DNA from: a virus
Length of the DNA: 64,000 bases
IMG/VR virus record: IMGVR_UViG_3300032087_006189
Direction: 5' to 3' (one strand)
Below the pieces are notes generated by a model that searched no databases, was not told the DNA's origin, and saw only the letters and a list, made by a program, of their open reading frames with translations. The position numbers were made by a program, and so were the translations under genes. Positions 7,301 to 47,461 of this stretch are shown one piece after another; positions within the stretch are counted from its first letter, which is position 1, and every line of letters begins with the position of its first letter.

Positions 7301-10300
7301 CTGACCCCAAAAGAACTGTGACTGTAGCCCTAAACTCCGTCTGTGTGCGGTCGAGGCTGTCTACGGCGTACGCGGCGCTTCCGAGATTGAGATACGCTTC
7401 GTAAAATGGAATCCCGTCGTCGGTAAATCCAAGGTGGCGGAAGCCATCTTCTGCGTCCCCCGCGACAGCCGAGAGGTAAGTTCCCTCTCCCTGCACCACA
7501 GAAGTTAGAGTTACGGTCACCGAGGGAATCGGAAGTCCGCCGAAGGCGCTGATTCTGGAGGTTTGCACTCCGGTGACCGTGACCAATACTCGCCCTTCAG
7601 AGGTGTCGAGCGCATCCTGTAACAGGGTTTGCAGCTCCTCAATATCGGTCGTCTCCGAGATCTCCGCAGAGACGGTAGCCGTCAGGGTTTCTCTGGATAG
7701 GCCCTTTTCGATAATACATGTAAGAGTTTTTCCAGCTGCGGAAGTAAGTGGGAGCGTCACTACTGCTCCAGTGATGGACGCAGCCTCAGTTACTTCTTCA
7801 TTCCACGAGTAACCCAAGCACGCGCTGGGTCCGTAGGCCGTGACTGAGGTGGGCTCCGTGAAGTACAGGCGGGCAATCTGCTCCGCCGTAGGCGAACCCA
7901 CAACGTAGTCGTCAAAGAATCCTGCTGTGATCTTCTTGAGCACCGATTCGGGAGACACCACCAGCTCAGACGGGACGGTGTAGCCCGCTGAATCCAGCGT
8001 CTTAAACAGCCAAGTAAAGGATTCCTGTACGATTTCCCAGGGGTTTACAGTATCCCCTGCAGTAGGGCCTGTGCTGACGCTTGCAGACACATTGAATGTG
8101 GGACCACTCAATGACAGGCCACCAGAAGATGTACTGGCAGGGAAGAAGTCGGACAGCCCCTGGTATGGGTTGACCGGAAACTCGTTTTTGATCTTTACGA
8201 TGGCAAATGTGTAGGCCACGCGGTCATCGAGGTAGTCCGGAGTCCCCGACGAGCTGTCTGCGGTGACAATGCTGCCGCCATGGTACAGCTTGTAGGTGTA
8301 GACCTTGTCGATGACATAGGAGCCCGCGTTTGCGCCATGCGACACAGTCAGGATGTCTCCAGACTTTGCGCGAGACAGCGCAGCCGGTGTGTTCCGCAGT
8401 TCGCCGTTGTTGTAGTCCTCCATCGCACGAACGAAGGTCGTCTCGTCACTAAAGGCGCCCTTCCAGTCGAACTCTGGAGCAGCAATGAAGGTGTTGTTGC
8501 AGTTGTCGAACAACGCCTTCGGAATCAGAATTTCGTACTGCGCGATGATGGAATGCGAAGCATCAATCGGATCGAGCGTAAATGGAGCGAACAGGTCGAA
8601 AAATGACCGGAAGTCGTCACCCAGCCCGAAGTCCTCAGTAAGGGAGGTCAGCCAAGACCTGATCTCTCCCAAGAAATCTGTCACCTCTGTAGGCAGATTG
8701 ATGCTGAGATGGTTTTGCAGGGCATGGCCTGAAGTCCCGGAGGCATCTTGAGCCAGCGTAATGACGGCGACATAGTCGTCATCTGAAGGCAGGCACTCGT
8801 CAGTAATGCAGGTTCCCGGACGACCTGAATACTGCGTGATGGTCTTCATGTCCGCCTGAAGAATCGTTCCATCAGGGGACCGCAGACCGGAACCGTTGCT
8901 GACGGCACCAGTTGCGCTGTCTACATCGTAAGCGACCAGTCGTACATGGGATGTCGGTGCCCAGTTCTGTCCGGCATCGGGCATCACAAAGCCGTTGAGG
9001 CCGCGGTAGGATTCCCGTGCCCCAGAGAAGCTCTCTACCGCCCGTGCCCCGACAGGGAGAGCCGGAGGCACGGCGTAGCCAGTAGACTGTCCCTGCGCGT
9101 CTTGGACGACCATCCCTTGCGGGGAAACTCGAACCAGCGGCCGGGAAAGGCCGGAGCCTGCCGCAAACAGCCTGAAACTGGCATTGGCATCTGTAGACGG
9201 CATGACTGTATCGAGGATTGGTGCTCTTCCTCGGAGAGCTGCGTCAAACCCGGTGATCTCGTAGACTCCCACATTTGGGCCGTCCAATACCTCGATAGTC
9301 GCCCCCTCTGTCGCCCCGTAGCTGATGAGGTCCACAGAAGTCCGGACAGTGGCAGAGCCGATGACCATGTCCAGATCATTCGCGGCTTGCCCAGCAAAGG
9401 GGTACAGCGGCGCTCTCGGCTCGAAAGCATCAACCACTACCTCATCCACTACTCGGAATCGGTAATCGCTGCCAAGAACCGTCATCGCAGAATCAAGGAC
9501 AAGCTCCGGTCCCTGCACATCCATGATCTTGTAGGTGCCCGAATCAGGGCTGTCGATGATCGTCAGGGTCATGCCCCGAGTCACTCCGTAGTCTGCCCAC
9601 AGGGTCTGCTCTACCGAGGTGATGGTGCCGATTGCTCCGGAGGACTCACCAATGATTTCCGTGTACTGCGTCCACTCGTTGTCTCGGGTGTTCCCGACGA
9701 GATCGATGTACTGATCGGTGTTATTGACATCGACCGCGATGGCGCCAGTATCCATCTCCTTCGTCGCCGTGGAGCTGTTGTAGAGACGGATTACCTCTCC
9801 CTCGATGAACACAGGGACTGAAGATCGGGAGAAGGTCAGGCGAAGACGGGCATTGACCTTGTTTTCGAGTGCCCCGTACTCCTTCAGAGTCGCAGGAATC
9901 TCATCCTTGCTGATGGTACAGAGCGTCGTACCCTCGAGTACGCTCACTTCACTTGATGCGGAAGAGAGCACAGAGCTGGTCGAAGAGCTCTGCGATGGGC
10001 GCACGAATACATCGTAGTGGCCGCCGATGTGGACTTGGTCGTCGCGGACCACAATCTCATCAGCATCATCTGGGTTGGTAATACCGCCTGGAATTCCGGA
10101 GATGCGAATCTCAGCCCGATCATACGCGGAGGCAAACACGGCAGGCAGCAGCCCAGGAATCATGGCTCCTGGAGGAGCATCCACTTCTGGTGCTTGGTTG
10201 AGCCGAAGCAAGTAGATCGTAGGAATGCCCTCAAGGTCTCCAGAGCTTTCGTAGAGTACTTCCTCAACTGTAAACCGCTGGTTCTCGGCGATTGCCTGAG

Positions 10301-13692: not shown

Positions 13693-14588
13693 CAGGTCAC
13701 AGTCACCGTGATGGTATCGAATGTGACAGATACCTCAGGAGTGCGCGTAGCAGCAGTAAATGGTGAGCTGAAGGAAATCGTGCAAGAGCCGGCAGAGACT
13801 CCCTCAATGGTCAGGATTCCCTCGCTCAGGGACACAGTAGCCACATCCGTGTCGCTGCTTTCCACAGACACGAGGCCTGCAGCGTACTGCGTGGACGTTT
13901 CCGTGGTGTACGGCGTGGTTCTACCGCTGGAAAGAACTGCAGACACCGAGACGGTCGTAGACGCATCCGCAGCCACAGACACGGTACTGCTGCCCAGATC
14001 TACTCGAGCAACGTAGGGCCAGATCAAGTCTGTAAAACCCGCCGAGCTCGTATCAGGGACATGAACGGGAAACACCGTGTTGCCATAGGACTCGACTACC
14101 GCGTCGTAGATACAGTTGCGGAGCAAGTCGAACTCGAAGTACCCATCAGAGTCAGAGACCGCAATGACCTTTTCGTTGCCGGTAGCCATACCTCCGCTGA
14201 TACGGATCTTGTCGAGGAGCATGAACTCAGCCGTGACTTCAGGCAGATATTGTCCAGCAGCCCCGATCACATAGCCACTGATACGACAGAGGTTTGTCTG
14301 GGTAGCTGGGGGGCGAGTATCAAGATTATCTCCCGACACCTCGAACTCAGAATCCTCCGTGACCTCAACGCTGAGTTTCTTCGCAAAACTAAAGCCCTGC
14401 TTGAAGAATCTGACCCAGTAAGTCGCCAGAGGAAGCTCAAAAGTCACTTCCCCAGAAGAGTCGGTATCTCCGCTGTCAATGAAGGTCGCGCCATCAGATG
14501 AGAACACGAAAACCGTGACTGCGGTGACGGGCGTAGCCTTCGTGGCATCGCTCGCGTCATAGGTGTAGAGCGTGACTGATGCCATCAC
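13692..14588 (-). CDS. Ig-like / carboxypeptidase-regulatory-like repeat structural protein
   Basis: TDSSGEVTFELPLATYWVRF and SDSDGYFEFDL are prealbumin-like. SSDTDVATVS...GVSAGSCTI is Big_2-like. Confidence 0.65.
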   Translation of the reverse strand: MMASVTLYTYDASDATKATPVTAVTVFVFSSDGATFIDSGDTDSSGEVTFELPLATYWVRFFKQGFSFAKKLSVEVTEDSEFEVSGDNLDTRPPATQTNLCRISGYVIGAAGQYLPEVTAEFMLLDKIRISGGMATGNEKVIAVSDSDGYFEFDLLRNCIYDAVVESYGNTVFPVHVPDTSSAGFTDLIWPYVARVDLGSSTVSVAADASTTVSVSAVLSSGRTTPYTTETSTQYAAGLVSVESSDTDVATVSLSEGILTIEGVSAGSCTISFSSPFTAATRTPEVSVTFDTITVTVT

Positions 14589-15250
14589 GACCTCCGAGGC
14601 AGTTCGGTGAGCTCAAGCTCTTGTACCTCAAGGAGATCGTCCCCTTGTGCGGCAAGCTCAAAGATGTCGATCGTGGACTGGTCGGGAATGGTGACATTTC
14701 GCACCAAGGAAGTCCCAGAGATTGCGAGAAGTCCCGTAATACCTCGGACAACAGTAAAGGACACTGCCCCGGTAGCGTCTGATACCGCAGTCACATCTCC
14801 TGCAACGAATCCCACACCGGTGAGTCGCGAATCTTCCGTGTTTGGCGTAAACCGAACATAGACGCCCTGCTTGTAGTCTCCAGCTGCGTCAATGAACGTG
14901 CCGGTAAGTGTGCAGGTATTGCTTGACCCTACATCGGGCGCATCGGGGACATCGACCTCTGATGCCTCCGTTAGCGCAAAGATGGTGTCCGTTGACGAGT
15001 AATCGGTTCCCGAGACCGTGAACTCCCACAGCAAAGAGTACTCTCCCGCTGTCGCAGGGGTCCAAGCTGCCTCGTAGACTCCGGTGCTGGAATTGGTCGG
15101 GCTTGTGATCGTTTCTACGACCGCGGCATCTTTACTGATCGTCAGAGTCGGGGCTGAATCCGCATTGATCAAGTACGCGCTTCCGCCTTCGGTCGTGAAC
15201 TGGATCGTAAGTATTGAGGTCGTTTCCTGACCTACTGCTTTGAACGCCAT
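14585..15250 (-). CDS. Ig-like structural protein
   Basis: STGVYEAAWTPATAGEYSLLWEF and SDATGAVSFTV; coupled ORF. Confidence 0.6.
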   Translation of the reverse strand: MAFKAVGQETTSILTIQFTTEGGSAYLINADSAPTLTISKDAAVVETITSPTNSSTGVYEAAWTPATAGEYSLLWEFTVSGTDYSSTDTIFALTEASEVDVPDAPDVGSSNTCTLTGTFIDAAGDYKQGVYVRFTPNTEDSRLTGVGFVAGDVTAVSDATGAVSFTVVRGITGLLAISGTSLVRNVTIPDQSTIDIFELAAQGDDLLEVQELELTELPRRS

Positions 15251-15663
15251 CAGGAGCTCCTGACCGAAAAGGCGAGGGTGCCGGCAGTCCCTTCAATGAT
15301 CTTTGGCACTGAGGTAGAGGTGCCGCCCTCGGATGGGTTTTCTGTGATTACAGAGGTGGATGCAGCTTCGGTAGCCGACGCGGTTGCGGCATAGAACCGA
15401 GAGACTGTCGTTCCCTGGATCACATTACTGGAGTCTCTTGCGACATACTGTACGAAGTACCACCCGGCCGAAGCCGGGGTGTACGTGCCGGTATACACCT
15501 TTCGATCATCGGTGCTGAACGCCGACTTTTCGGTCAAAGTCACATCAGAAGACGAGTCATCTTCCGCAAAAACAACCGATGCGGTAACTGCAAGGCCCGT
15601 TGAGTCCGAGAAGAACGACAGCACAAACTCTTCGCCAGTGTGGGCTGAAGTAGAAGAGATCAT
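15250..15663 (-). CDS. Ig-like structural protein
   Basis: Start moved to ATG 15663 because it overlaps the upstream stop (ATGA); contains VYTGTYTPASAGWYFVQY. Confidence 0.55.
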   Translation of the reverse strand: MISSTSAHTGEEFVLSFFSDSTGLAVTASVVFAEDDSSSDVTLTEKSAFSTDDRKVYTGTYTPASAGWYFVQYVARDSSNVIQGTTVSRFYAATASATEAASTSVITENPSEGGTSTSVPKIIEGTAGTLAFSVRSS

Positions 15664-16151
15664 GCAGAGACTCCTACGCCACCCAGACAAGATGCGGTAC
15701 CGCCGTACACTCCGTTGACAACTCGGAGAGGGGCGAACTTCTGCCCGTCAAAGGCGGCACAAAAGGTTCTTTGGATGGAGTTCGAGACAAATATACCATG
15801 CAGGTGAAAGACATACTCTCCAACGTCGATGATCTTCCCAGGGATGCCCAGCAAGATCTGCGACTGCTGCTGCGGAGTGTGCTCGCCCTCCCACTGTTTT
15901 TGCGGGATGGGGTCTCCTGGAAGAAAGACCATATACGCGAAGCAGTCTTCTTCTGGAAGAAAATGAGTTGATATTTCCTTTCCAGTGGGGTCGTTTGACA
16001 GCTGGCTGGGGACTGCACTGAAGGAGTCCTCACCTGTGCGAACAAAACGAATAAGGCTCGCAACCACTGCAGCGGAGCGAGCCTCTCTTCTTTTTACGCA
16101 GCCGTCAAGAATCTGGCTGCTCATTTTTAGGGCTTCCCAGTCCAGACGCAT
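15660..16151 (-). CDS. Hypothetical protein
   Basis: 163-aa ORF in the operon; the start may be later (MSSQ, 16124). Confidence 0.5.
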   Translation of the reverse strand: MRLDWEALKMSSQILDGCVKRREARSAAVVASLIRFVRTGEDSFSAVPSQLSNDPTGKEISTHFLPEEDCFAYMVFLPGDPIPQKQWEGEHTPQQQSQILLGIPGKIIDVGEYVFHLHGIFVSNSIQRTFCAAFDGQKFAPLRVVNGVYGGTASCLGGVGVSA

Positions 16152-16509
16152 CGTCTCCTACCTCTGCGGCCTTTGCCAAGGTGGCAGCTAGCTGTTCCGC
16201 AGCAGTCTTTACGTCGTTGAAGACAGATCCGCCACACTGCGCAATGATTGAGGGAATCATGTGCTTTGGGATATCCAGACCAACCGAGTAGTTAGCCAGC
16301 AGAATACCCAGTACGCTGATGATCTTCTCATACTGATGGCGAACCAGGGGAGGATACTCATTCCCGAGAAGGTCATAGAGCTGGCCAGTCTCGCTGTTGT
16401 AGATGGCTCGCTCTCCCGCAGGATCGGCTACTACGGCTGAAACTGCTGCCTTGAGGGAGGTACGAGCAGATTTTCCACCGCCTACAAACTTCCATACACG
16501 CTTTGCCAT
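16105..16509 (-). CDS. Hypothetical protein
   Basis: 134-aa ORF; first gene after the terminator at 16591-16624. Confidence 0.6.
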   Translation of the reverse strand: MAKRVWKFVGGGKSARTSLKAAVSAVVADPAGERAIYNSETGQLYDLLGNEYPPLVRHQYEKIISVLGILLANYSVGLDIPKHMIPSIIAQCGGSVFNDVKTAAEQLAATLAKAAEVGDDASGLGSPKNEQPDS

Positions 16510-31709: not shown

Positions 31710-31849
31710 GAAAAAACTCCTTTTTTCTGCCATAACACTATCGTGAAGAAACTGAGAAGTCTCCGGAGAAATCGAGGAAGTACTCACCGCACCCAGGGCG
31801 TACTGGACTGTCCGGGAAAGCTGGGTGTGCTTCTTTTGTTAAGTAATGC

Positions 31850-32401
31850 CTACCGACGTTTCCGCATGGCTGACAGGGACAGTCTAATGCTGTCCTTAAT
31901 GTCTTCGGGTGAAAAGCCGGCACCGAGACCGGCAATCCCGAGAGTCCTTCCTTTCCTACCCTTGAGATTAGGTCTATTCTTCACCGCCCCCTTGATCCCG
32001 CTAATAGTTAGTTTACTGCCAAAACCAGGTGTACTCTTCGGCGCTGCTGCGCCCTTCACCCACTTCTGGTTGTCCTTGTCCTTGGTCTTCTTCGGGCTCC
32101 ACTTGGCCTTGTCGGCCCAGTAGGCTGCGGACATCTTGCCTCGTGCGATGTTCTTTCGGTGACGGGACTTGAAGGCTTCGCGCTGACCGGCAGTCTGGTT
32201 CGTCTTGACGCCCTGCTGCCCGAAGCGGATGGTCTTCACCCGATCCCCCTCTTTAGCCACCACAATGTGCGACTTCGTGGGGTGTCCGGGGGTGCGCTTC
32301 ACCTGGTTGTATCCAGAGACCCCTGCTCGAGCGAGGCGAGGATCTTTGGACTGGGCGGCTTCTTTTTCCATCAAGAACTGCCGAAGAGCTTTGTAGTTCA
32401 T
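31850..32401 (-). CDS. K-x-A-A-linked modular basic protein (RFG...FKSRH...AYW phage domain)
   Basis: Leader MNYKALRQFLMEKEAA; domain TIRFGQQG...AFKSRH...SAAYWADKAKW; second linker KGAAA. Confidence 0.7.
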   Translation of the reverse strand: MNYKALRQFLMEKEAAQSKDPRLARAGVSGYNQVKRTPGHPTKSHIVVAKEGDRVKTIRFGQQGVKTNQTAGQREAFKSRHRKNIARGKMSAAYWADKAKWSPKKTKDKDNQKWVKGAAAPKSTPGFGSKLTISGIKGAVKNRPNLKGRKGRTLGIAGLGAGFSPEDIKDSIRLSLSAMRKRR

Positions 32402-33963
32402 TTCTTCGCCTTCAAGCTGGTGCCCTTGGCAAGCCCGTGGGAGCTGTACTGCTGGCCCTTGCGCGTTGCCTCTGACTTCTTTCGAGACGCGGCAGCAAGG
32501 CTCTTGCGTCCAGATTCGGTTTTCTTGAGTCTATCAGCCTTTCTTTCTGGGAGGTAGACCCCTTTACCCCCCGGACCTGGCTTGTCTCCACCCGACCAGT
32601 TCCACTTTTGCTTGGTCCACTTCTTCAGCGAGTTGTTCTTCGAAGTGGGCTTGGCGCCGGAGTAGCCGCCGCCCTTCTTCTTGTAGATCTGAGTCGCCAG
32701 CTGCATTGCGCGAGCAGAGTGCTTGCCGCCCATCTTGTTCTTGGCTTCGCGCTTCGCGGCTTCCCACTTGACTGGGTCGGTCTTGGTGGCGGTCGCAGCA
32801 GCCTCTTTGCCAATTCCATAATGGGAAGGAGGATGTACGGACCACTGTCGATAGTCGGGCATAGAGCGACCGCTTTCCAGTTTGACTGTAGGCAGGGCCT
32901 TCATGGTCTTCAGGGTCTCTCTTCGATACTTTCTTTTTTGCTGACTTGTCAGGCCCTTATTGTGGGAAAGGAACTCTTGGTTCTTCTTTCTGCCGGTGTC
33001 GAAGATGTCGTTGAACGCCGCAGACTCTTTGATCAAGTCTCCATCGGGGTGCTTGCGAACCTTGCCGGAGGCGATCAACGACTTGATTGCGGACTGCAAA
33101 TCGTCTTCCTTGACTCGCTTTTTGAGTGCGCCCATCCCTGCTGCGCCACCCTCAACACTGAGCGCCTTCAGGACTTGCGACTCGGTGGAGGCTGCCTGCT
33201 TTCGCATGCGGAGCTTCTTCTTGATGATGCCGGCTTGGATCTTGTCTGGAAGCTGAGACTGCTTGCCCTTGAGCGCAGGGTGCTTGTCCATGGACTTTGA
33301 GAAGGTTGCCGCAGATTCTTTGTCCATGAGCTCGTCCACGGGGCGGAAGAGGTAATCTTCTGCCATATCTCGTGAAAGCTGTTTCATTAGGGCGGGGTTT
33401 GCGAGTCTTCGCTTCTGGGCTGCCAAAGCCCTTTGATGCATCTGCTCGCCCCGCTCTCCACGCAGATCTTTATTCACCTTGTGCCCAGTAATGGCCCCCA
33501 GAAGTGCTCCAGCAGATCCAGTGACTGCCGGTGCATACCGCATCTTAGGGATGTACGACAGGGGGTACCCGAGACCGACCCCAAGAAGCCCTCCTCCAAG
33601 GATTCCAAGAGGCACCATACTGGGTGCGTGCTTTGGGTGCGTAGGATCTTTCAGTAGTCCCGCATGGATCTCTCTGGCAAGCTCATTTGGGTCATCCGTG
33701 ATGTGATCCTCTGCGATCCTGCCAGCTGCGTGGATGTCGTCGTCCTCATACTGAGACCAGTCTGCCGCCATCTTCTCTTCGTACTCACCGGGGTACGCAG
33801 TTCCCAGCGCACTGCCGAGCCCGCTGTAGGCGTTGTAGATCTTGTACTCGGCCCACGACGGAATCTGGAGCCCAGAGTCGATCTTGTCCTTGAGGTGCAG
33901 AGCTTGAGCAGCCATGCGCTCAAGAACCTTGCTCAGCATATGAGAGTCGTCGTACTCGCTCAT
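32398..33963 (-). CDS. K-x-A-A-linked polyprotein (~521 aa, about six modules including a Gly-zipper, a wHTH-like module and a C-terminal DUF5872-like module)
   Basis: The real start is ATG 33963 (ATGA overlap). Linkers are EKMAA, DKESAA, RKQAAS, IKESAA and GKEAAA. The last module reads HSARAMQLATQIYKKKGGGY...SLKKWTKQKW...YLP. Confidence 0.75.
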   Translation of the reverse strand: MSEYDDSHMLSKVLERMAAQALHLKDKIDSGLQIPSWAEYKIYNAYSGLGSALGTAYPGEYEEKMAADWSQYEDDDIHAAGRIAEDHITDDPNELAREIHAGLLKDPTHPKHAPSMVPLGILGGGLLGVGLGYPLSYIPKMRYAPAVTGSAGALLGAITGHKVNKDLRGERGEQMHQRALAAQKRRLANPALMKQLSRDMAEDYLFRPVDELMDKESAATFSKSMDKHPALKGKQSQLPDKIQAGIIKKKLRMRKQAASTESQVLKALSVEGGAAGMGALKKRVKEDDLQSAIKSLIASGKVRKHPDGDLIKESAAFNDIFDTGRKKNQEFLSHNKGLTSQQKRKYRRETLKTMKALPTVKLESGRSMPDYRQWSVHPPSHYGIGKEAAATATKTDPVKWEAAKREAKNKMGGKHSARAMQLATQIYKKKGGGYSGAKPTSKNNSLKKWTKQKWNWSGGDKPGPGGKGVYLPERKADRLKKTESGRKSLAAASRKKSEATRKGQQYSSHGLAKGTSLKAKK

Positions 33964-34469
33964 TTCTTTTCCCAGTCGAGGGACACGGAGTCCTTGGTAA
34001 TGGGGCCACCGGATGCCCAAGTATAGCAAGTACGGGCAGAATGGCACTTGAAGTGATGCATGTGGCAATAGCCGAGGTATCCGTCCTCTTGGACCATGCC
34101 GGGCATGCAGTCCTGCATTCGCGGAGAGATGTCGAAAGCCACGCAGTTCGAGCACTTCGACTTCTTGGCCACGGCAGGAGTCGTCTTCCAATGCGCGGCC
34201 AAGCGCCTCCAGTACCCTTGATCGGATAGATTCAGGGGTCCGTATTGGATGTGGTCAGCTTGGATCGACTTGTTGCGGTTCTTCGTATTGACCTTGAGAT
34301 CGCGGGTCGCAAGCGGGCACGCTGCAGCCTCTTTCGATCCACCGAGGTGGTAGCCACAGTTCGAGCACTTCTCCGCACCAGCATGGTTCATGTGCCCGCA
34401 CTTGGGACACTTGATCTTGCCGGCCGAGAGCTTGATCAGCTCAAGTGTGAATCCTGGGAGAAGTCTCAT
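33960..34469 (-). CDS. K-x-A-linked Cys-rich protein: zinc ribbon plus a Cys/His metal-binding domain
   Basis: Leader FTLELIKLSA; CPKC..CSNC; linker SKEAAA; then CSNCVAF...GYCHMHHFKC...TCYTW. Confidence 0.7.
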   Translation of the reverse strand: MRLLPGFTLELIKLSAGKIKCPKCGHMNHAGAEKCSNCGYHLGGSKEAAACPLATRDLKVNTKNRNKSIQADHIQYGPLNLSDQGYWRRLAAHWKTTPAVAKKSKCSNCVAFDISPRMQDCMPGMVQEDGYLGYCHMHHFKCHSARTCYTWASGGPITKDSVSLDWEKK

Positions 34470-37153
34470 TTTTTGTCCGTAAACTTCGTGCGATTGGTCA
34501 GGCGACTGACTGCGCGCAGATTAGCAGATCCATTGCCGCCGCCCTTGGAAATCGGCGTCTTGTGATCAGCTTCTCGAGGGTCGCCCTTCTTCAGGCCCAG
34601 TTTTCTGCGTGCCTGATTTCGCATGCTGCGGTTGGCTACTTGCTCTGGCTTTGCGTGGTACTGAGCGTACTCTCGGGCATAGTCTCTTTTGCGCTGACCG
34701 TATGGGGCTGCCGCGTATTTTGCGATTCCCTTTTCTATGAGCTCTCCTGACTCACTAAATCGCGCCGGCCGAACGATCTCCTTCATTTTTGCGCCGACGC
34801 CTGCTCCGTCCTCAAAGGGATCAAAGAGCTTTCTCAGGTCATTGGGCTCTAAGGTCTTTGCATCGATACCTCCCACTACGTTGCGGAAGTCGTGAGCACT
34901 CGGTATCGCGTGAATCTCTCCATTTACTCGGCGCATACCAACTGGACGATCTCCAAAGGCCCTTTGAATCTCTCTGTGATCGAGCTGTTGCCACGGATTA
35001 CTGGGATCGGCGTAGAACTTTTTATTCTGCACAAATCCAGCGTAGTTTGGGTTAGCTGCGTACCGCGCATTCCACTGCTTGAGGGCCTCATCTGTAGAGG
35101 GATCGTACGCTGACGGCGGCGGAGCCGCCGCACGAGAAGCTGCCGGAGGCGGTGCTGACGGCGGCGGAGCCGCCGCACGAGAAGCTGCCGGAGGCGGTGC
35201 TGACGGCGGCGGAGCCGCCGCACGCGCAGTAGAGCGTGCAGCCTTGGGAGCGGAGCCTGCAGCCGAAGTAGCAGCGTCAGCTGCTCCGGTTGCAGCACGG
35301 CGAGTTGCTTTGGGGGCTGCGGATGGGGTCAGCTTCTTGAGGAGCTTTGGTGCTTGGCTGATTCCCGCACCAAGAGTTCCTCCCAGCAAGGCTCCCTTTA
35401 GTCCTCCGTAGTCTGCACCGGAATCGTACCCCGCAGCTCCGCCGAGGATTGCTCCGATGCCCGCGCCAGCTGCGAGTGATGCGACCTTGACCCGCTCGCC
35501 GGGAGGCTTCATGTTCGGGCCCAGCACGGTCTTCACGACATGCTTTGATCCGATGTCGCCAATAACGACGTAGCCTTTTCCGCTTTTGAGGGGGACATGG
35601 TAGGTCTGCCCCTTGCGAAGATTCATCATCGGAATGCGCGCTCGAATCTTGGCGACTTCATAGGTCGCGCCTGGAGCTCGCTCTGCGATGCGGTCCTCTA
35701 CATGACCGGCTTCCTTTTCGATATCACTGGCCTGTTGGAATACTGCTCTCATTTGATTTGCCAGCTCCGTCTTTTCATCGGCTCGATCTTGAATCCACTG
35801 CTCAGTGGACTTGCCAGGATCCATGCCGAGAAATCCCTTGGGAAGAGAAGAATAGTACCGCTGCACATGAACCTTACGCTCTGCAGGCGGAAGATGGGCG
35901 TGACTCTGGTAGCGAACCCCGCGTCCGATCACCTGGTCGATCTTTGAGTTGTTCCAGTGGGGCTCAAGAACCTGAACCATCTTGGTGCCCTTGAGGTCCA
36001 GCCCCTCAGTTCCCGAACTCGAGACAAGCAGGACAGGGACCTTGCCCGAGTTGTACTCGTCTACCATCTGCGCCTTTTGCTTTGCGTTCAACTTCCCGGT
36101 CAGGGTGTTGAACTTGATCTTCTTCTTTTTTAGCGCGCGCTCGTAGGGCTTGAGCCCCGCCTCGATGTAGTTCGAGTAGACAACTCCGCGGAATCGGCGA
36201 TCTTTCTTCTTTGCCTCGTGCAGTCTGCGGGCTGCTTCCTGAATCTTGGGAGTGTGGAGCTCCTCCTCCTCTTCCGTCATAGTGTCGACATACGGCTTCG
36301 GAGAAAGCGACGCTTGCCTGCCCGCAGTCGTAAACGCATTGAGCATTCGCGACTCTTGCTTTGAGGGCGGCAACCCTGCGCGGATCTTGCGTCGCACATG
36401 CCACGGAGCGGCGCCCATCACCGCATTGTAGACTTCCTTCTGCTTTCCCGACATTGGGACATTGATGCGCTCGTCAATCTGCTCTGGGAAGTCCTCTGGG
36501 TTTGCCTCAGAATGGACATCGATCCTTCCCACGAGGGCATCGCGCAGCGCAGTGGCGTTCTGAAGGTCTTTGCGGATTCCGGGTTGAACACCTACCAACC
36601 GGTTCAACAAGCCAGGAGAAACCTTTGTCTCCCGGATAAACTTGCGCCGAAAAGACATGGTGTCGGCAGGAAGTACGGTCTCCCCTGCAGCGATGTTTGC
36701 AAGAGGCGCAATATCAAAGGGCTGGTTGTACAGCGCGGTTCCAGTCAAGAGTAGCCGCTTACCGGCCTGTTCGGACTCAGGCCTCAGCGTTCTTGTTGTC
36801 AAAGACGGGTTCCGAAGCCTGTGTGCTTCGTCGAGAACTAGAAAAGAGCCGGGCTCGATCGCTGCTCGCTCTTCCTTGGTTTTGCGGCGAACTGCTTTCT
36901 CGTAGGAGCTGATTCTGGCTTCGACCTCTCCCTTGACGTGCTTTTTGATCTCCTTTTCATAGTTCTTCGTTAGCGATGCCGGAGTGATGATCTCCATCGG
37001 AGCACCACTTCTGACACCCGCAGCAATAGAGGTCAGCGTCTTTCCAGCCCCTACGCGGTGAGCAACAATGACGCCGTCGCTGTTCTCCAGCTTGCGGAGG
37101 ACCCGCTCTTGATGCGGCTTGAGCTTGGCGGTGACTTTGGGAGATTTAGACAT
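34466..37153 (-). CDS. SNF2-like SF2 helicase fused through K-x-A linkers to small domains and a C-terminal HNH endonuclease
   Basis: Helicase motifs LKPHQ, GAGKT, LDEAH, LLTGT, GTEGLDL, EPHWN and QVIGRGVR. HNH is EADHKTPISKGGGNGSANLRAVSRLTNR. The start is probably MSKSPK at 37153. Confidence 0.85.
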   Translation of the reverse strand: MSKSPKVTAKLKPHQERVLRKLENSDGVIVAHRVGAGKTLTSIAAGVRSGAPMEIITPASLTKNYEKEIKKHVKGEVEARISSYEKAVRRKTKEERAAIEPGSFLVLDEAHRLRNPSLTTRTLRPESEQAGKRLLLTGTALYNQPFDIAPLANIAAGETVLPADTMSFRRKFIRETKVSPGLLNRLVGVQPGIRKDLQNATALRDALVGRIDVHSEANPEDFPEQIDERINVPMSGKQKEVYNAVMGAAPWHVRRKIRAGLPPSKQESRMLNAFTTAGRQASLSPKPYVDTMTEEEEELHTPKIQEAARRLHEAKKKDRRFRGVVYSNYIEAGLKPYERALKKKKIKFNTLTGKLNAKQKAQMVDEYNSGKVPVLLVSSSGTEGLDLKGTKMVQVLEPHWNNSKIDQVIGRGVRYQSHAHLPPAERKVHVQRYYSSLPKGFLGMDPGKSTEQWIQDRADEKTELANQMRAVFQQASDIEKEAGHVEDRIAERAPGATYEVAKIRARIPMMNLRKGQTYHVPLKSGKGYVVIGDIGSKHVVKTVLGPNMKPPGERVKVASLAAGAGIGAILGGAAGYDSGADYGGLKGALLGGTLGAGISQAPKLLKKLTPSAAPKATRRAATGAADAATSAAGSAPKAARSTARAAAPPPSAPPPAASRAAAPPPSAPPPAASRAAAPPPSAYDPSTDEALKQWNARYAANPNYAGFVQNKKFYADPSNPWQQLDHREIQRAFGDRPVGMRRVNGEIHAIPSAHDFRNVVGGIDAKTLEPNDLRKLFDPFEDGAGVGAKMKEIVRPARFSESGELIEKGIAKYAAAPYGQRKRDYAREYAQYHAKPEQVANRSMRNQARRKLGLKKGDPREADHKTPISKGGGNGSANLRAVSRLTNRTKFTDKK
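35109..35224. repeat. 45-bp tandem repeat (~2.6 copies) encoding an RAAAPPPSAPPPAAS linker
   Basis: gctgacggcggcggagccgccgcacgagaagctgccggaggcggt repeats exactly at 35109 and 35154 and partially at 35199. Confidence 0.9.
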
Positions 37154-39068
37154 CCAAGCCCCACAAAACCATCGCCTCTTTTTTGGCATCTTCGTAGGTA
37201 CGGGACTTGGCTGACGTCTCGCTTACGTCAGCCAGATCCGTCTTCCCTTTGAGCCTGCCGATAGTGGGGCGCTGTCCGAGAGCCTTGCCCAGGTGCTTCA
37301 CATGCGCGTTTCTATCCGACACAAGGAAGTCAGCGGGGGCCGTCATTGACCATCTGCCGCCCCGAGTGTGAGTAGCGTGACCTTGCAGGGCATACGCGGC
37401 CCCAATCAGGTTGCTGCAGGTCCACTTGTCCGTCTTTTTGATCTCCTTGCCATGGTCCAGCTTCTTGTCGAAGTACTTCGGCATGAAGATCGAGAAGCCC
37501 TTTTTGGCCAAGAACTTGTGAGACTCGTAAGGGGCTCCCACCTGCGTCTTGGCAAATGTTGCAGCCGCGCGACGAGCCTTGGTGCTGACTTTTGGACGAA
37601 CGACCACTGCCCCGTCCAAATCCCGTAGAGATCTCTTGAGAGATCGCCTTACGACGCCCCCCTGCAAAGCCTCGACTACCTGGCCCTTTCCGACGTAGAT
37701 GGCAGAGTGGGTGTAGGATCCTTGCGCAGCGGGAGAAGCCTTGCGGAAGAACTGTTCCTTCATCCGCTTGTGAAGAGGGGCACCTGAGTCCTTCGAATAC
37801 TGCTCGGGAGCCATAGCAGTGAGGATCACGTCTCCTACCTGCATGCCCTTTGAACTTGCTTCTCTGGCGGCCATCGCCTCTTTTTTGATGTCCTCGTAAG
37901 TACGGATTGATCGGAAGTTTGGAGACTTCTCCTCAATCTCTTTCCGGTACTTCAGATCATCGAAGTGAGTAGTCAGTCCCATCTTGAGATCTGGAAGCAT
38001 GGGCGTGCCTCGCTCTCGCGATCGCTTGCCCACCCGAAACATGCGAGTCGCCATTGGGGTGTCCAGGTACAGGACATCATCCGCCTGTGCCAACAGCTTA
38101 GGATACCTCAGTGCCCCTCTTGGGTATCCCTCCACAAGGACCCGCTTACCCTTTGCGCGCATCTTCAGTGCGAGAGCTTCTCTGCGGTTGCGAATCTTCT
38201 CGCGCTCGGCTTTGGGCGGCTTGACATACTGTCCGTTGACGACCCCTCCCGTGTCTGTCCCGATCAGGACATCAAACTCTCCGCTGTCGACCAGCTTCTT
38301 GGCCATCGTGCTTTTGCCCGCGCCGGCTCCACCAGTGATGAAAGTCAGTCGCGGAGCTTTGTCGGATGCCTCTTTTTTGAGCTCTCTTTGCGCCAGAATC
38401 TCAATGCCGGGGTATTTAGCGGCTACAGCTTTACGGACCTGTGATTTCTCCCCCGGAGTACCGTGCTGGGCTACTCGAGCTAGGGCATTGCGAGCATGAG
38501 ATCGGTCATGGATCGGATAACGCCTACCGGGCAGAGCGAAGTTGCCTTCGGAGATCTGATTACGTCCTCTGGTTGTTAGCTCTGCCGCTTCTTTCTTGAG
38601 CTCTCCGTAGGAGGCAGTCTTGTTCATCTGCTTGAACTGTCGAATGTGTTTGCAGTCCACGACTTCTCCCGGTTTCGCGACCGAACGCTTGTAGCGCCAG
38701 TCGTTGCAGGTGCATCCCAGCCGGTCTTTGCCGCGCAGCTTGACGATGCTGTAACTCTTGGACCCGCTCTGGACGGTGCCGACCTTCTTTCCGGTCTGCA
38801 GGCGATTCATGTTGTCCGCGTGCATGACCAGCTTGGCATCAGAGCGAGAGTCACTTCCCAGCTGCTTCACAAAGGACTTGCGCGAAGCATTGTTGAGGAA
38901 CTGGTCCCAGTCCTTCTTCTTTGCGGTGTGAAAGCTCTCGACCCGCGCACCGGCACGCTTCTTTTCTCTCGACTGAAAGAAGTTCTGAAGTCGGCCTCTG
39001 ATTCCAGAAACAAAAGAGGATGGCGAAAACTCGCCATCCTTTTCAAACTCTGGATAGAAGTGGTACAT
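37146..39068 (-). CDS. Four-module polyprotein: SWIM zinc finger, DUF6582-like domain, P-loop kinase, and permuted NlpC/P60 (YiiX/C92) amidase
   Basis: CTCNDW...CKH; NFALPGRRYPIHDRSHARNALARV; ITGGAGAGKST...VEGYPR; GDVIL...THSAIYVG...VGAPY...CSNLI. Modules are separated by KKEA[A/S/M]. Confidence 0.8.
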   Translation of the reverse strand: MYHFYPEFEKDGEFSPSSFVSGIRGRLQNFFQSREKKRAGARVESFHTAKKKDWDQFLNNASRKSFVKQLGSDSRSDAKLVMHADNMNRLQTGKKVGTVQSGSKSYSIVKLRGKDRLGCTCNDWRYKRSVAKPGEVVDCKHIRQFKQMNKTASYGELKKEAAELTTRGRNQISEGNFALPGRRYPIHDRSHARNALARVAQHGTPGEKSQVRKAVAAKYPGIEILAQRELKKEASDKAPRLTFITGGAGAGKSTMAKKLVDSGEFDVLIGTDTGGVVNGQYVKPPKAEREKIRNRREALALKMRAKGKRVLVEGYPRGALRYPKLLAQADDVLYLDTPMATRMFRVGKRSRERGTPMLPDLKMGLTTHFDDLKYRKEIEEKSPNFRSIRTYEDIKKEAMAAREASSKGMQVGDVILTAMAPEQYSKDSGAPLHKRMKEQFFRKASPAAQGSYTHSAIYVGKGQVVEALQGGVVRRSLKRSLRDLDGAVVVRPKVSTKARRAAATFAKTQVGAPYESHKFLAKKGFSIFMPKYFDKKLDHGKEIKKTDKWTCSNLIGAAYALQGHATHTRGGRWSMTAPADFLVSDRNAHVKHLGKALGQRPTIGRLKGKTDLADVSETSAKSRTYEDAKKEAMVLWGLDV

Positions 39069-39069
39069 C

Positions 39070-39714
39070 TCAGGCCGTGATGAAAGCCCGGAACCTCGAC
39101 TCGAGAGTGGAACCAGAGAGCGTATCCTTTAGGATGTTCTCCAGCGGGTAGATGGTGAGACCCTTCTTCTCTCGCGCTGTCCGGTAGTTGTAGTTCCGGC
39201 TCATCATAACAGTACGGGGATCTGTCGGGCTATACTTCGCGTAGATGTCCGCGTTGCTCCCGATTTTGCGCCACCACCAGGCCAGCTTCTCGGCGGCTTG
39301 GTTGATGGTCATGCTGTACATGATCGAGTCTCCGATCTGATCTAGCCGGTGCGCAACATGGCAATGCGGACAGACCACCATGCCGGTCTCTTGGGCGAGG
39401 TCGCCAGAGATCAAGTTGTTGCACCCCTTCTTTGTCTTGACCTTTGCTGCGGCCATCTCAAACGGCCGCACGGATGGGGCAGTCTCATTTCTGCGGCAGA
39501 TGAACATCATCTCATCACCGCCGCCATGAAGCCGCTTGCCAGATTCCCAGAAGGAGACGGAGAACACCACAGGCTTGTGCATTGATCGGTCAGACCGGAA
39601 CCAGATCTGGATCTTGTACTTCGCCTTCTTGGCACGCTCTTCGTCGGCCTTCTGGTTTTCGACTTCGATCTTTCTAGCGATCTCTGCAGTAAGACGCTCT
39701 TGATTCAACTTCAC
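39070..39714 (-). CDS. Hypothetical zinc-binding protein
   Basis: 214 aa; FIC...GC...CPHC. Confidence 0.65.
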   Translation of the reverse strand: MKLNQERLTAEIARKIEVENQKADEERAKKAKYKIQIWFRSDRSMHKPVVFSVSFWESGKRLHGGGDEMMFICRRNETAPSVRPFEMAAAKVKTKKGCNNLISGDLAQETGMVVCPHCHVAHRLDQIGDSIMYSMTINQAAEKLAWWWRKIGSNADIYAKYSPTDPRTVMMSRNYNYRTAREKKGLTIYPLENILKDTLSGSTLESRFRAFITA

Positions 39715-46625: not shown

Positions 46626-46830
46626 TCAGATTGAAGTTCGACTTTTTGCGAAGGTCGACAAAAATGGCGACGAGTACTTTATTGGTAGCTCGGACGCACC
46701 TGCGCAGATCAACCTTCAAGACGCGACTTTTGTGTTCTTCCTCCCTCCCGAGGGAGAAACGATTGGCGCTCTGAAGATTCGACCCAGAACCCCTCGAAGG
46801 TTCGGTCAAGATGGTGACGGGCCGTCTTAG
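46618..46830 (+). CDS. Hypothetical protein
   Basis: 70 aa; its stop codon falls inside the 5' end of tRNA-Thr. Confidence 0.55.
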   Translation: MADQIEVRLFAKVDKNGDEYFIGSSDAPAQINLQDATFVFFLPPEGETIGALKIRPRTPRRFGQDGDGPS

Positions 46831-46896
46831 CTCAGTTGGTAGAGCATCGGTTTTGTAAACCGACGGTCGACGGTTCAAGTCCGTCAGGCGGCTCCA
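46821..46896 (+). tRNA. trnT: tRNA-Thr(UGU)
   Basis: Cloverleaf; anticodon loop tt-tgt-aa; GGTTCAA T-loop; CCA encoded. Confidence 0.92.
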
Positions 46897-46981
46897 GGAA
46901 GCGTGGCCGAGTGGTTTAAGGCACCGGTCTTGAAAACCGGCGAAGGGAAACCTTCCGTGAGTTCGAATCTCACCGCTTCCG
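46897..46981 (+). tRNA. trnS: tRNA-Ser(UGA)
   Basis: Long variable arm; anticodon loop ct-tga-aa; GTTCGAATC. Confidence 0.92.
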
Positions 46982-46988
46982 CCCTCCA

Positions 46989-47063
46989 TGGGGCGTGGTG
47001 TAATTGGCAACACATCGGTTTTTGGCACCGACGTTCGGGGTTCGAGTCCCTGCGCCCCAGCCA
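46989..47063 (+). tRNA. trnQ: tRNA-Gln(UUG)
   Basis: U1-A72 acceptor stem tggggcg/cgcccca; anticodon ttg; CCA encoded. Confidence 0.9.
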
Positions 47064-47141
47064 AGAGATACGCCTTGCTCTTGGCCTACTGCTCCATGCT
47101 ACCCCCCTTCAAACCTATGGGGCAGTAGGCCAAGGCTTTGC

Positions 47142-47215
47142 AGGCCCGTAGCTCAGTCGGTCAGAGCACCCGGCTCATAACCGGAGGGTCGTCGGTTCGA
47201 GCCCGACCGGGCCTA
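47142..47215 (+). tRNA. tRNA with a CAU anticodon (Ile2-like or elongator Met)
   Basis: Anticodon arm cggctcataaccg resembles Ile2; lacks initiator features. Confidence 0.85.
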
Positions 47216-47231
47216 CTCTTTTGGAGAGAGA

Positions 47232-47378
47232 ATGTACCAAGTAACTGTAGGAAATAAGGTCTTCTTTTCAGAAGACTACGATTGGAGCCTGCCGAAGACG
47301 CTGGCAGCAGCACGAGAATGGGCGGCAAAGAACGCGCCCCAGCAAGAGGTCAAGGTTGGCTTGATCTCCTTCTTGTAG
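47232..47378 (+). CDS. Small hypothetical protein (48 aa) inside the tRNA cluster
   Basis: GGAG SD; MYQVTVGNKVFFSEDYDWSLPKTLAAAREWAAKNAP.... Confidence 0.5.
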   Translation: MYQVTVGNKVFFSEDYDWSLPKTLAAAREWAAKNAPQQEVKVGLISFL

Positions 47379-47384
47379 TGACCT

Positions 47385-47461
47385 GCCTCGATAGCTCAGT
47401 TGGATAGAGCACCGGCCTTCTAAGCCGATGGTCCCAGGTTCGAATCCTGGTCGAGGCGCCA
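47385..47461 (+). tRNA. trnR: tRNA-Arg(UCU)
   Basis: Cloverleaf; anticodon loop ct-tct-aa; CCA encoded. Confidence 0.92.

Follow-up and report, generated by a model that had tools for sequence, protein, structure and literature searches.

Lys-x-Ala joints as sites of in-frame module exchange in a multi-domain protein array of an uncultured phage

What do short in-frame direct repeats mean when they bracket the modules of a phage multi-domain protein? The question is raised by a stretch of 64,000 nucleotides (nt) from IMG/VR virus record IMGVR_UViG_3300032087_006189, called the window below, whose source is an uncultured large phage. At 31850-39068 on its minus strand it carries five translationally coupled open reading frames (ORFs) encoding multi-domain, cargo-type proteins; we call this block the array. 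An earlier note had taken the repeats for the place, and indeed the means, by which modules are gained, lost or swapped, in the manner of an integron-like array at the level of protein domains. As to what the repeats are, we consider it probable that they are coding sequence of the inter-module joints in a five-gene polyvalent operon, shaped by ectopic recombination and by selection acting on the joints.

The repeats and the joints

All three pairs of direct repeats described in the earlier note exist at the stated positions, two recovered by a repeat search and the third (KESAA) by listing the joint motifs, with the coding strand being the minus strand. In the first pair (37169-37203 and 37871-37905, spacing 702 nt) 30 of 35 nt are identical and the encoded peptide is S-x-RTYED[IA]KKEAM; the second (38368-38386 and 38587-38605, 17/19 nt, spacing 219) encodes ELKKEA and the third (33017-33031 and 33308-33322, spacing 291) KESAA. 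All spacings are multiples of 3 and every copy is in frame in minus-strand ORFs. A match of 30/35 is far above chance for random DNA, yet it is within what two identical peptides would yield. When only identical residues with degenerate codons are compared, the same codon is used at 6 of 9 residues in the first pair (expected 4.3 +/- 1.4), at 3 of 6 in the second (expected 3.0) and at 3 of 6 in the third (expected 2.4), the expectation being taken from the codon usage of the window itself. A search for attC-like hairpins found 17 short inverted repeats in 31800-39100, which show no association with the linkers. Because synonymous codons match at chance, no hairpins occur at the joints and the GAGG-ATG spacing is unlike that of genuine ribosome-binding sites (see below), the conserved object is the peptide, and not a DNA recombination site.

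What this peptide is becomes clear when all boundaries are read in array order: NKTA, four times KKEA, EKEA, KVA, KYA, SKEA, KMA, KESA, KQA, KESA, GKEA, EKEA and KGA. Each module boundary in the window is K-x-A/S followed by a small residue, and the three repeat pairs are such joints together with a few residues preceding them. The run AAA-AAA-GAG in the repeats also has an ordinary reason, namely a general preference for AAA before GAG, since K-E dicodons outside the array behave alike. In the minus-strand ORFs of the window 79% of Lys codons are AAG overall, whereas before Glu about half are AAA, inside and outside the array. This preference looks like avoidance of an internal AAGGAG.

Exchange of modules at the joints

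It is at the joints that modules are gained, lost, replaced and laterally exchanged in frame. Among 36 proteins, tiled iteratively against 25 reference modules, we count 32 architectures and 57 ordered pairs of neighbouring modules. The SWIM-like module that opens the first array protein is followed by 13 different modules, and the small GHVEDR module is preceded by 12. The order itself varies: a ParB-like module stands before module M134 in protein P0020 and after it in P0019. K-x-A/S is present at 120 of the 140 joints (the remainder are mostly K-x-G), and 93 of 99 occurrences of the strict motif lie at a joint or at an N-terminal leader. Residues before the motif travel with the preceding module, as its tail, and those after it with the following module, as its head.

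Relatives had to be looked for outside the cultured phages, where megablast with the array gave no match and tblastn with the protein of 640 amino acids (aa) matched only through its DUF6582 module, in three Streptomyces phages. A scan of viral contigs with the same protein returned no relatives; with the helicase gene it returned L001, a 131-kilobase (kb) IMG/VR viral contig whose record is 70% complete. The N-terminal SWIM-like module brought 34 homologues of 357-1111 aa, and three homologues with 93-95% identity in this module but of unequal lengths led to the contigs L006, L007 and L008, from three independent datasets. A full-library search found the module in 236 cluster representatives, 84-1495 aa long and with no fixed place for it in the protein; distant SWIM modules usually have K-x-A next when a further module follows. 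Single-linkage clustering of motif-split segments was tried for delimiting modules; it gave one merged cluster, with unsplit multi-module segments bridging families, and was replaced by the iterative tiling. Pfam recognises only a minority of the 25 module families. Further modules seen in proteins P0034, P0012, P0013 and P0005 are a GNAT acetyltransferase, a shikimate-kinase-like P-loop, a YMGG Gly-zipper and a HEIGH-motif module (a possible metallopeptidase).

The closest relatives permit the events to be placed at the resolution of codons. Phages with 88-96% DNA identity differ by in-frame blocks of 0.2-2.9 kb, the ends of which lie inside K-x-A codons with microhomology of 3-9 nt, and the switch from left to right flank at the junctions sits inside the K-x-A-A codons. 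L007 and the window run colinear for 10,464 nt (96% identity), differ in structure at six places within the 6.8-kb array, and are colinear again beyond it. Turnover is concentrated in this island, which is hypervariable within otherwise colinear genomes. Homology blocks end at the joints at 38613 (NKTA), 35716-35708 (EKEA), 35488-35480 (KVA), 33774-33766 (KMA), 33321-33313 (KESA), 33201-33193 (KQA), 33030-33022 (KESA), 32808-32800 (KEA) and 32056-32048 (KGA). The breakpoints in the 895-aa gene (35716-35708, 35488-35480 and one near 34687) come from L007 and L008, and 32056-32048 in the 183-aa gene from both L006 and L007. After merging, 11 of 28 block ends are at most 6 nt from a K-x-A motif, where 1.8 were expected (0 of 20,000 simulations reached 11), as are 9 of the 12 ends that recur in more than one comparison.

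Individual events are simple to describe. In L007, NKTA is fused straight to the GHVEDR module, and DUF6582, kinase, amidase and SNF2 (2.9 kb) are absent. In L006, the place of DUF6582 between NKTA and LKKEA is taken by two modules, an unknown one and a ParB-like one. The junction EKMA-AATFSK is common to L006, L007 and L008, and in the 521-aa gene blocks of 448 nt and 208 nt are missing or replaced in relatives exactly at joint codons. Modules move between array genes as well: the SWIM protein P0037 contains a module with 58% identity to aa 316-381 of the 521-aa protein. In L001 (9029-11905) SWIM, ParB-like, SNF2, GHVEDR and HNH modules are found in a single 958-aa ORF, therefore ORFs also undergo fission or fusion at joints; in the window the stop and restart between the first two genes lies 8 codons past a KKEA joint. 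Indeed, the claim that modules are gained, lost and swapped at linker codons, with the frame and the K-x-A motif kept, is borne out both by the architectures and by the block ends. The result named in advance as speaking against it, a fixed module order in relatives with breakpoints unrelated to linkers, is clearly not what we see.

Some of the exchange took place between phages that are otherwise far apart. When L009 and L010 are compared with the window, the kinase module is 88-90% identical in DNA and 71-73% at 4-fold synonymous sites, against 60-76% in DNA for its flanks; the SWIM and GHVEDR modules, HNH and the upstream gene of the same contigs reach only 15-46% at 4-fold sites. The block of high identity around the kinase begins 6 nt ahead of one joint and stops 4 nt beyond the next. 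Similarly, DUF6582 of L011 is 86% identical to that of the window at 4-fold sites, and its neighbouring modules 21-50%. Since this pattern is beyond the reach of differences in protein constraint, it shows movement of single modules between divergent phages: the kinase and DUF6582 modules were laterally transferred.

With joints as the common element, the two longer repeats can be explained in terms of module tails. The kinase always ends in FRSIRTYED[A/I]KKEA, whether the GHVEDR module comes next, as in P0035, or MVLWGIDPQMSKTA, as in P0029, and distant C92 amidase modules (47-50% identity) have no RTYED tail. We also considered whether SYADAKAK, the C-terminus of these distant modules, is a homologue of RTYEDAKKEA. 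In an alignment by eye with the GRL motifs matched it stands opposite a different segment of the window, therefore the RTYED tail belongs to the kinase. L009 has a single copy of the repeat, at 7553-7587, which aligns to both window copies, and the amidase is absent from this site. Its left flank corresponds to the side of copy A (the kinase) and its right flank to that of copy B (GTTTTGTGGGGC, encoding VLWG); from the L009 counterpart of the stub MVLWGLDV, with which the 640-aa gene ends, the frame stays open into the following module (MVLWGIDPQMSKTA). The single-copy junction which the earlier note had led one to expect between the 35-nt repeats thus exists in a relative. In terms of sequence, the window has an L009-type empty site plus a C92 amidase and an extra copy of the tail, that is, an insertion/deletion polymorphism. 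Parsimony favours an insertion of the amidase over a deletion between repeats, as the kinase tail is met in three contexts and this type of amidase in one. The informative sites within the L009 repeat form a mosaic, hence the event is not recent.

The second longer repeat can be read in the same terms. In L011 the DUF6582 body ends in PGIE and continues with QDKQA and then GHVEDR, which is an alternative tail; in the window the module ends in ILAQRELKKEA, and 24/33 nt of this tail agree with the ParB-like tail of L006. We read SY-GELKKEA, upstream of DUF6582 in the window, as a ParB-like remnant consisting of the head SY and the tail GELKKEA, so that DUF6582 would lie between two copies of a ParB-like tail. 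Extended flanking repeats are found at two sites only, and at each they are the duplicated tail of the module preceding the insertion point. The observation that repeat identity extends beyond the K-x-A core therefore stands for these two sites, as duplicated module tails, but it is not a general rule of flanking. Other joins were not clean: besides SY+GELKKEA, remnants are seen as GHVEDRVAQ in the tail of another module, GHTEDRIAERAP fused to a second kinase, AYEEKVLTKEA, and SYEDAK+LTLRELKKEA.

Explanations weighed

Why should so many unrelated modules share one joint? In our opinion the K-x-A/S joint is most probably a site of a head-maturation protease, because N-terminal leaders of array proteins end in the same motif and the rule of a known protease is similar: herpesvirus assemblin cleaves at x-Ala|Ser. 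The leaders are MNYKALRQFLMEKEA in the 183-aa gene, GFTLELIKLSA in the 169-aa gene, and, in many SWIM homologues, LIERMLKEA at residue 13. The array sits in a co-oriented block of large ORFs beside a gene matching phrog_220, 'minor head protein and DNA pilot', and its proteins are probably packaged in the capsid.

The explanation we prefer is as follows. Each module would consist of its own head, body and C-terminal tail ending in Lys-x-Ala/Ser, followed by a small residue. As all modules end and start alike, any two of them joined in register would keep the frame, both folds and the predicted cleavage site. The source of new joins may be ectopic recombination, microhomology-mediated or illegitimate, between related phages in the same host cell; selection would then retain those in register, with frame, folds and a cleavable joint, and homologous recombination in conserved flanking modules would spread them. 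The two longer repeats would be by-products of module joining. We infer proteolytic cleavage, packaging, the mechanism of recombination and the direction of each event from comparison of sequences. Several points weigh against this explanation. No protease gene was found in the window or in the L001 record (70% complete; searched for S78, ClpP and S49 families), and an S77 search of L001 also gave no match, although its control gave none either. In-register joins at about 85% of joints could reflect a guided mechanism. The direction assigned to an insertion or deletion is tentative, all relatives are metagenomic contigs, and the motif definitions were refined after seeing the data.

The most serious competitor, which we nevertheless hold to be rather unlikely, is that the linker-coding repeats themselves are short homologies that guide a phage or host recombinase and so drive gain and loss of cassettes. 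It would account for the in-register joining of most joints, for crossovers inside K-x-A-A codons, for the single-copy counterpart of the 35-nt pair in L009, and for the AAR-GAR-GCN common to many joints. However, synonymous codon identity is at chance in all three pairs, exact microhomology at junctions between near-identical phages is just 3-9 nt, and the mosaic of informative sites in L009 does not correspond to a single crossover. The preference for AAA-GAG holds for K-E dicodons outside the array too, and out-of-register remnants are present. With chance-level synonymous sites and short microhomology, the idea of the DNA repeats as the recombining agent is not supported. A dedicated site-specific system, integron-like or shufflon-like, would fit the finding that exchangeable units stand in an ordered array and share a boundary motif, yet the linkers show no association with inverted repeats or hairpins, no recombinase family was matched among the array genes or called neighbours of five loci, and the boundary motif is degenerate in DNA. 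We regard such a system as extremely unlikely, and the integron likeness is an analogy only.

Three more explanations deserve discussion. Many differences between close relatives do resemble simple deletions, and the motif could be only a conserved cleavage or linker peptide in proteins inherited vertically with differential loss and no exchange between phages. That leaves the synonymous identity of single modules, far above that of their neighbours, unexplained, as it does the permuted order of the ParB-like module and M134 and the presence of the same module in different array genes; we give it very little credence. We are equally sceptical that the purine-rich AAAGAGG(CG)ATG acts as an internal ribosome-binding site, with modules translated separately and repeats kept as translation signals. 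The coding sequence of KKEAM, AAAAAAGAGGCGATG, does contain GAGG followed by ATG, but only 2 nt separate the two, against about 5-8 nt between GGAG or GAGG and the ATG at the genuine starts of the window, and on this spacing the idea was rejected. Besides, most joints lack Met, K-T-A joints have no Shine-Dalgarno-like sequence, and the use of AAA instead of AAG before GAG avoids AAGGAG. Finally, every relative is an assembled contig, and the differences might be assembly chimeras at repeats. The joints, at 9-35 nt and degenerate, are in our reasoning rather short to cause assembly mis-joins, the long ORFs are intact in every variant, and the same junction was obtained from three independent projects; assembly chimeras we find scarcely conceivable.

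Returning to recombination with selection on the joints, one may go further and propose that, in a large clade of uncultured phages, K-x-A protease-site codons are the universal connectors, always in frame, of an effector array built by plug-and-play. Capsid-delivered effectors would then diversify by exchange of single domains, outpacing point substitution, and cleavage site and recombination joint would be one element, kept partly for evolvability. We regard this broader proposal as evenly balanced between being right and wrong.

Array layout and known systems

The first array gene (640 aa, 39068-37146) encodes four modules, all on the minus strand as is the rest of the array. The SWIM-finger-like N-terminal module (38613-39068, aa 1-152) ends in QFKQMNKTA; its label reflects a Cys/His pattern only, and Pfam has no SWIM match for it. 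The upstream ELKKEA copy (38587-38605) lies within the mini-linker NKTA-SY-GELKKEA. Next is the DUF6582-like module (38367-38585, aa 162-234, by Pfam and PHROG), with its body ending in PGIE and the downstream ELKKEA copy (38368-38386) in its tail. The P-loop kinase module (37875-38366, aa 235-398) has the native tail FRSIRTYEDIKKEA, with repeat copy A at 37871-37905; its Pfam matches are AAA_17, AAA_33 and zeta-toxin-like, all under curated cut-offs. The module which the earlier note had called NlpC/P60 is indeed flanked by genuine repeats, and it is identified here as a permuted papain-like amidase, Peptidase_C92 (PF05708; 37173-37874, aa 399-632), ending in SRTYEDAKKEA, the second copy of the kinase tail, with repeat copy B (37169-37203). 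The stub MVLWGLDV and a stop (37146-37172) form the 3' end of the gene. Only Peptidase_C92, SNF2-rel_dom, Helicase_C and ResIII are above the curated cut-offs of Pfam, and the names DUF6582 and kinase stand for sub-threshold matches.

The genes are all joined by ATGA or ATGTCTAA overlaps, and the ATG (37153) of the 895-aa gene (37153-34466) overlaps the stop of the 640-aa gene as ATGTCTAA. By Pfam and PHROG matches and by tiling, this gene encodes an SNF2 helicase module with joint EKEA (37153-35708), the small GHVEDR module with joint KVA (35707-35480), a Gly-zipper, Pro-Ala repeat and unknown domain with joint KYA (35479-34712) and an HNH-like module (34711-34469). Within its Gly-zipper/unknown block a 45-nt unit is repeated exactly three times in tandem (35109-35243), encoding PPSAPPPAASRAAA; over this block L006 has only 65% protein identity to the window, and DNA homology is lost at 34976-34774. 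The 169-aa gene (34469-33960) is kept in every close relative and consists of the leader GFTLELIKLSA, a zinc ribbon, the joint SKEA and a C-terminal domain. The 521-aa gene (33963-32398) has modules linked by EKMA, DKESA (33308-33322), RKQA, IKESA (33017-33031) and GKEA; it truly starts with the ATG at 33963, which shares an ATGA with the stop codon of the 169-aa gene, and a 597-aa ORF starting with TTG over-extends it (33963-34191). The 183-aa gene (32401-31850) encodes the leader MNYKALRQFLMEKEA, a domain matching phrog_7595 and phrog_220 ('DNA pilot'), the joint VKGA and a variable C-terminus.

A few further observations belong to this layout. L007 carries an extra 716-aa gene (14315-16465, 2151 nt) exactly between its homologues of the 521-aa and 183-aa genes (window 32393-32395), and L006 has 869 nt of extra modules just past the leader of its 183-aa homologue. 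In the 474-aa protein P0038 a C92 amidase module is upstream of SWIM, with the joint ECVLKEA as the counterpart of the leader LIERMLKEA elsewhere; the leader itself therefore acts as a joint. Away from the array, a cluster of five tRNA genes (Thr-TGT, Ser-TGA, Gln-TTG, Met-CAT and Arg-TCT) lies at 46821-47461 on the plus strand.

Phage proteins injected with DNA are thought to be front-line tools of counter-defence, and how their repertoire diversifies is poorly understood. The locus offers a view of this diversification at codon resolution, with domains behaving as cassettes joined by one short peptide that is probably also a protease site, and with exchange occurring between phages otherwise saturated at synonymous sites. 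It further supplies a rule, open to testing, by which module boundaries and new effector domains may be located in polyproteins of uncultured phages (about 25 module families are delimited here), and it suggests a natural design principle for multi-cargo phage capsids.

The array shares with integron cassette arrays the ordered exchangeable units, but these are not separate genes, and there is neither an integrase match among array genes and called neighbours nor any attC-like hairpin. It also resembles the model of Hendrix and colleagues, in which phage mosaicism reportedly arises by illegitimate recombination followed by selection. In both, novel joints with little or no homology would survive if function is kept and homologous flanks would spread the exchange. 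The classical boundaries are gene boundaries, whereas the units of the array are single protein domains within an ORF, each bounded by a putative protease-site codon triplet.

In the internal proteins of T4 and the ejection proteins of phiKZ and SPN3US, short leaders end in a motif recurring in head proteins, and the cargo is packaged and ejected; array proteins likewise have a short N-terminal leader ending in a putative protease motif, and would probably be packaged too. The phiKZ/SPN3US ejection proteins are cut after A/S/G-x-E, and the known head-protease substrates lose their propeptides after Glu (PMC10052503). In the array, by contrast, the motif is Lys-x-Ala/Ser, nearer to the assemblin rule, and separates several modules of a polyprotein whose cleavage is predicted.

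By domain repertoire and context the array proteins fit the polyvalent proteins, multi-domain effectors of phages and conjugative elements (Iyer, Burroughs, Anand, de Souza, Aravind 2017; PMC5512222). Unrelated effector domains (SNF2 helicase, ParB-like, papain-like peptidase, kinase, HNH) are combined in one polypeptide, at least two in each of the 640-aa and 895-aa ORFs. The proteins are phage-encoded (the relative L001 belongs to a virus in IMG/VR), their genes share one orientation with a run of large ORFs beside the gene matching phrog_220, and, as for polyvalent proteins, they are encoded among late or virion genes with highly variable architecture. For polyvalent proteins co-delivery with DNA, sometimes with proteolytic processing, has been proposed, the processing being ascribed mainly to built-in peptidase domains (PMC5512222). 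A common joint or cleavage motif, or linker-based exchange, is not described in that article ('linker' and 'shuffl' are absent from its text), although domain replacement in polymorphic toxins is alluded to. The uniform K-x-A joint and exchange resolved to codons between near-identical genomes distinguish the array, and the common joint with linker-based exchange would be a new aspect of such proteins.

The closest analogue in working seems to us to be domain replacement at the pre-toxin motif of polymorphic toxins. In these (CdiA with VENN, Rhs with PxxxxDPxGL) C-terminal toxin domains are replaced at a conserved motif. Orphan cassettes or immunity genes were not met downstream of the array, where further coupled polyproteins are followed by conserved small genes and a DNA ligase, and silent module duplicates were absent from the loci examined. 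Polymorphic toxins have one variable position, immunity genes, orphan cassettes and bacterial secretion systems, whereas the array has many joints per protein, no immunity genes and the context of a phage capsid. What the two would have in common is a short conserved peptide that marks in-frame swaps of unrelated domains and so yields combinatorial diversity in a conflict system.

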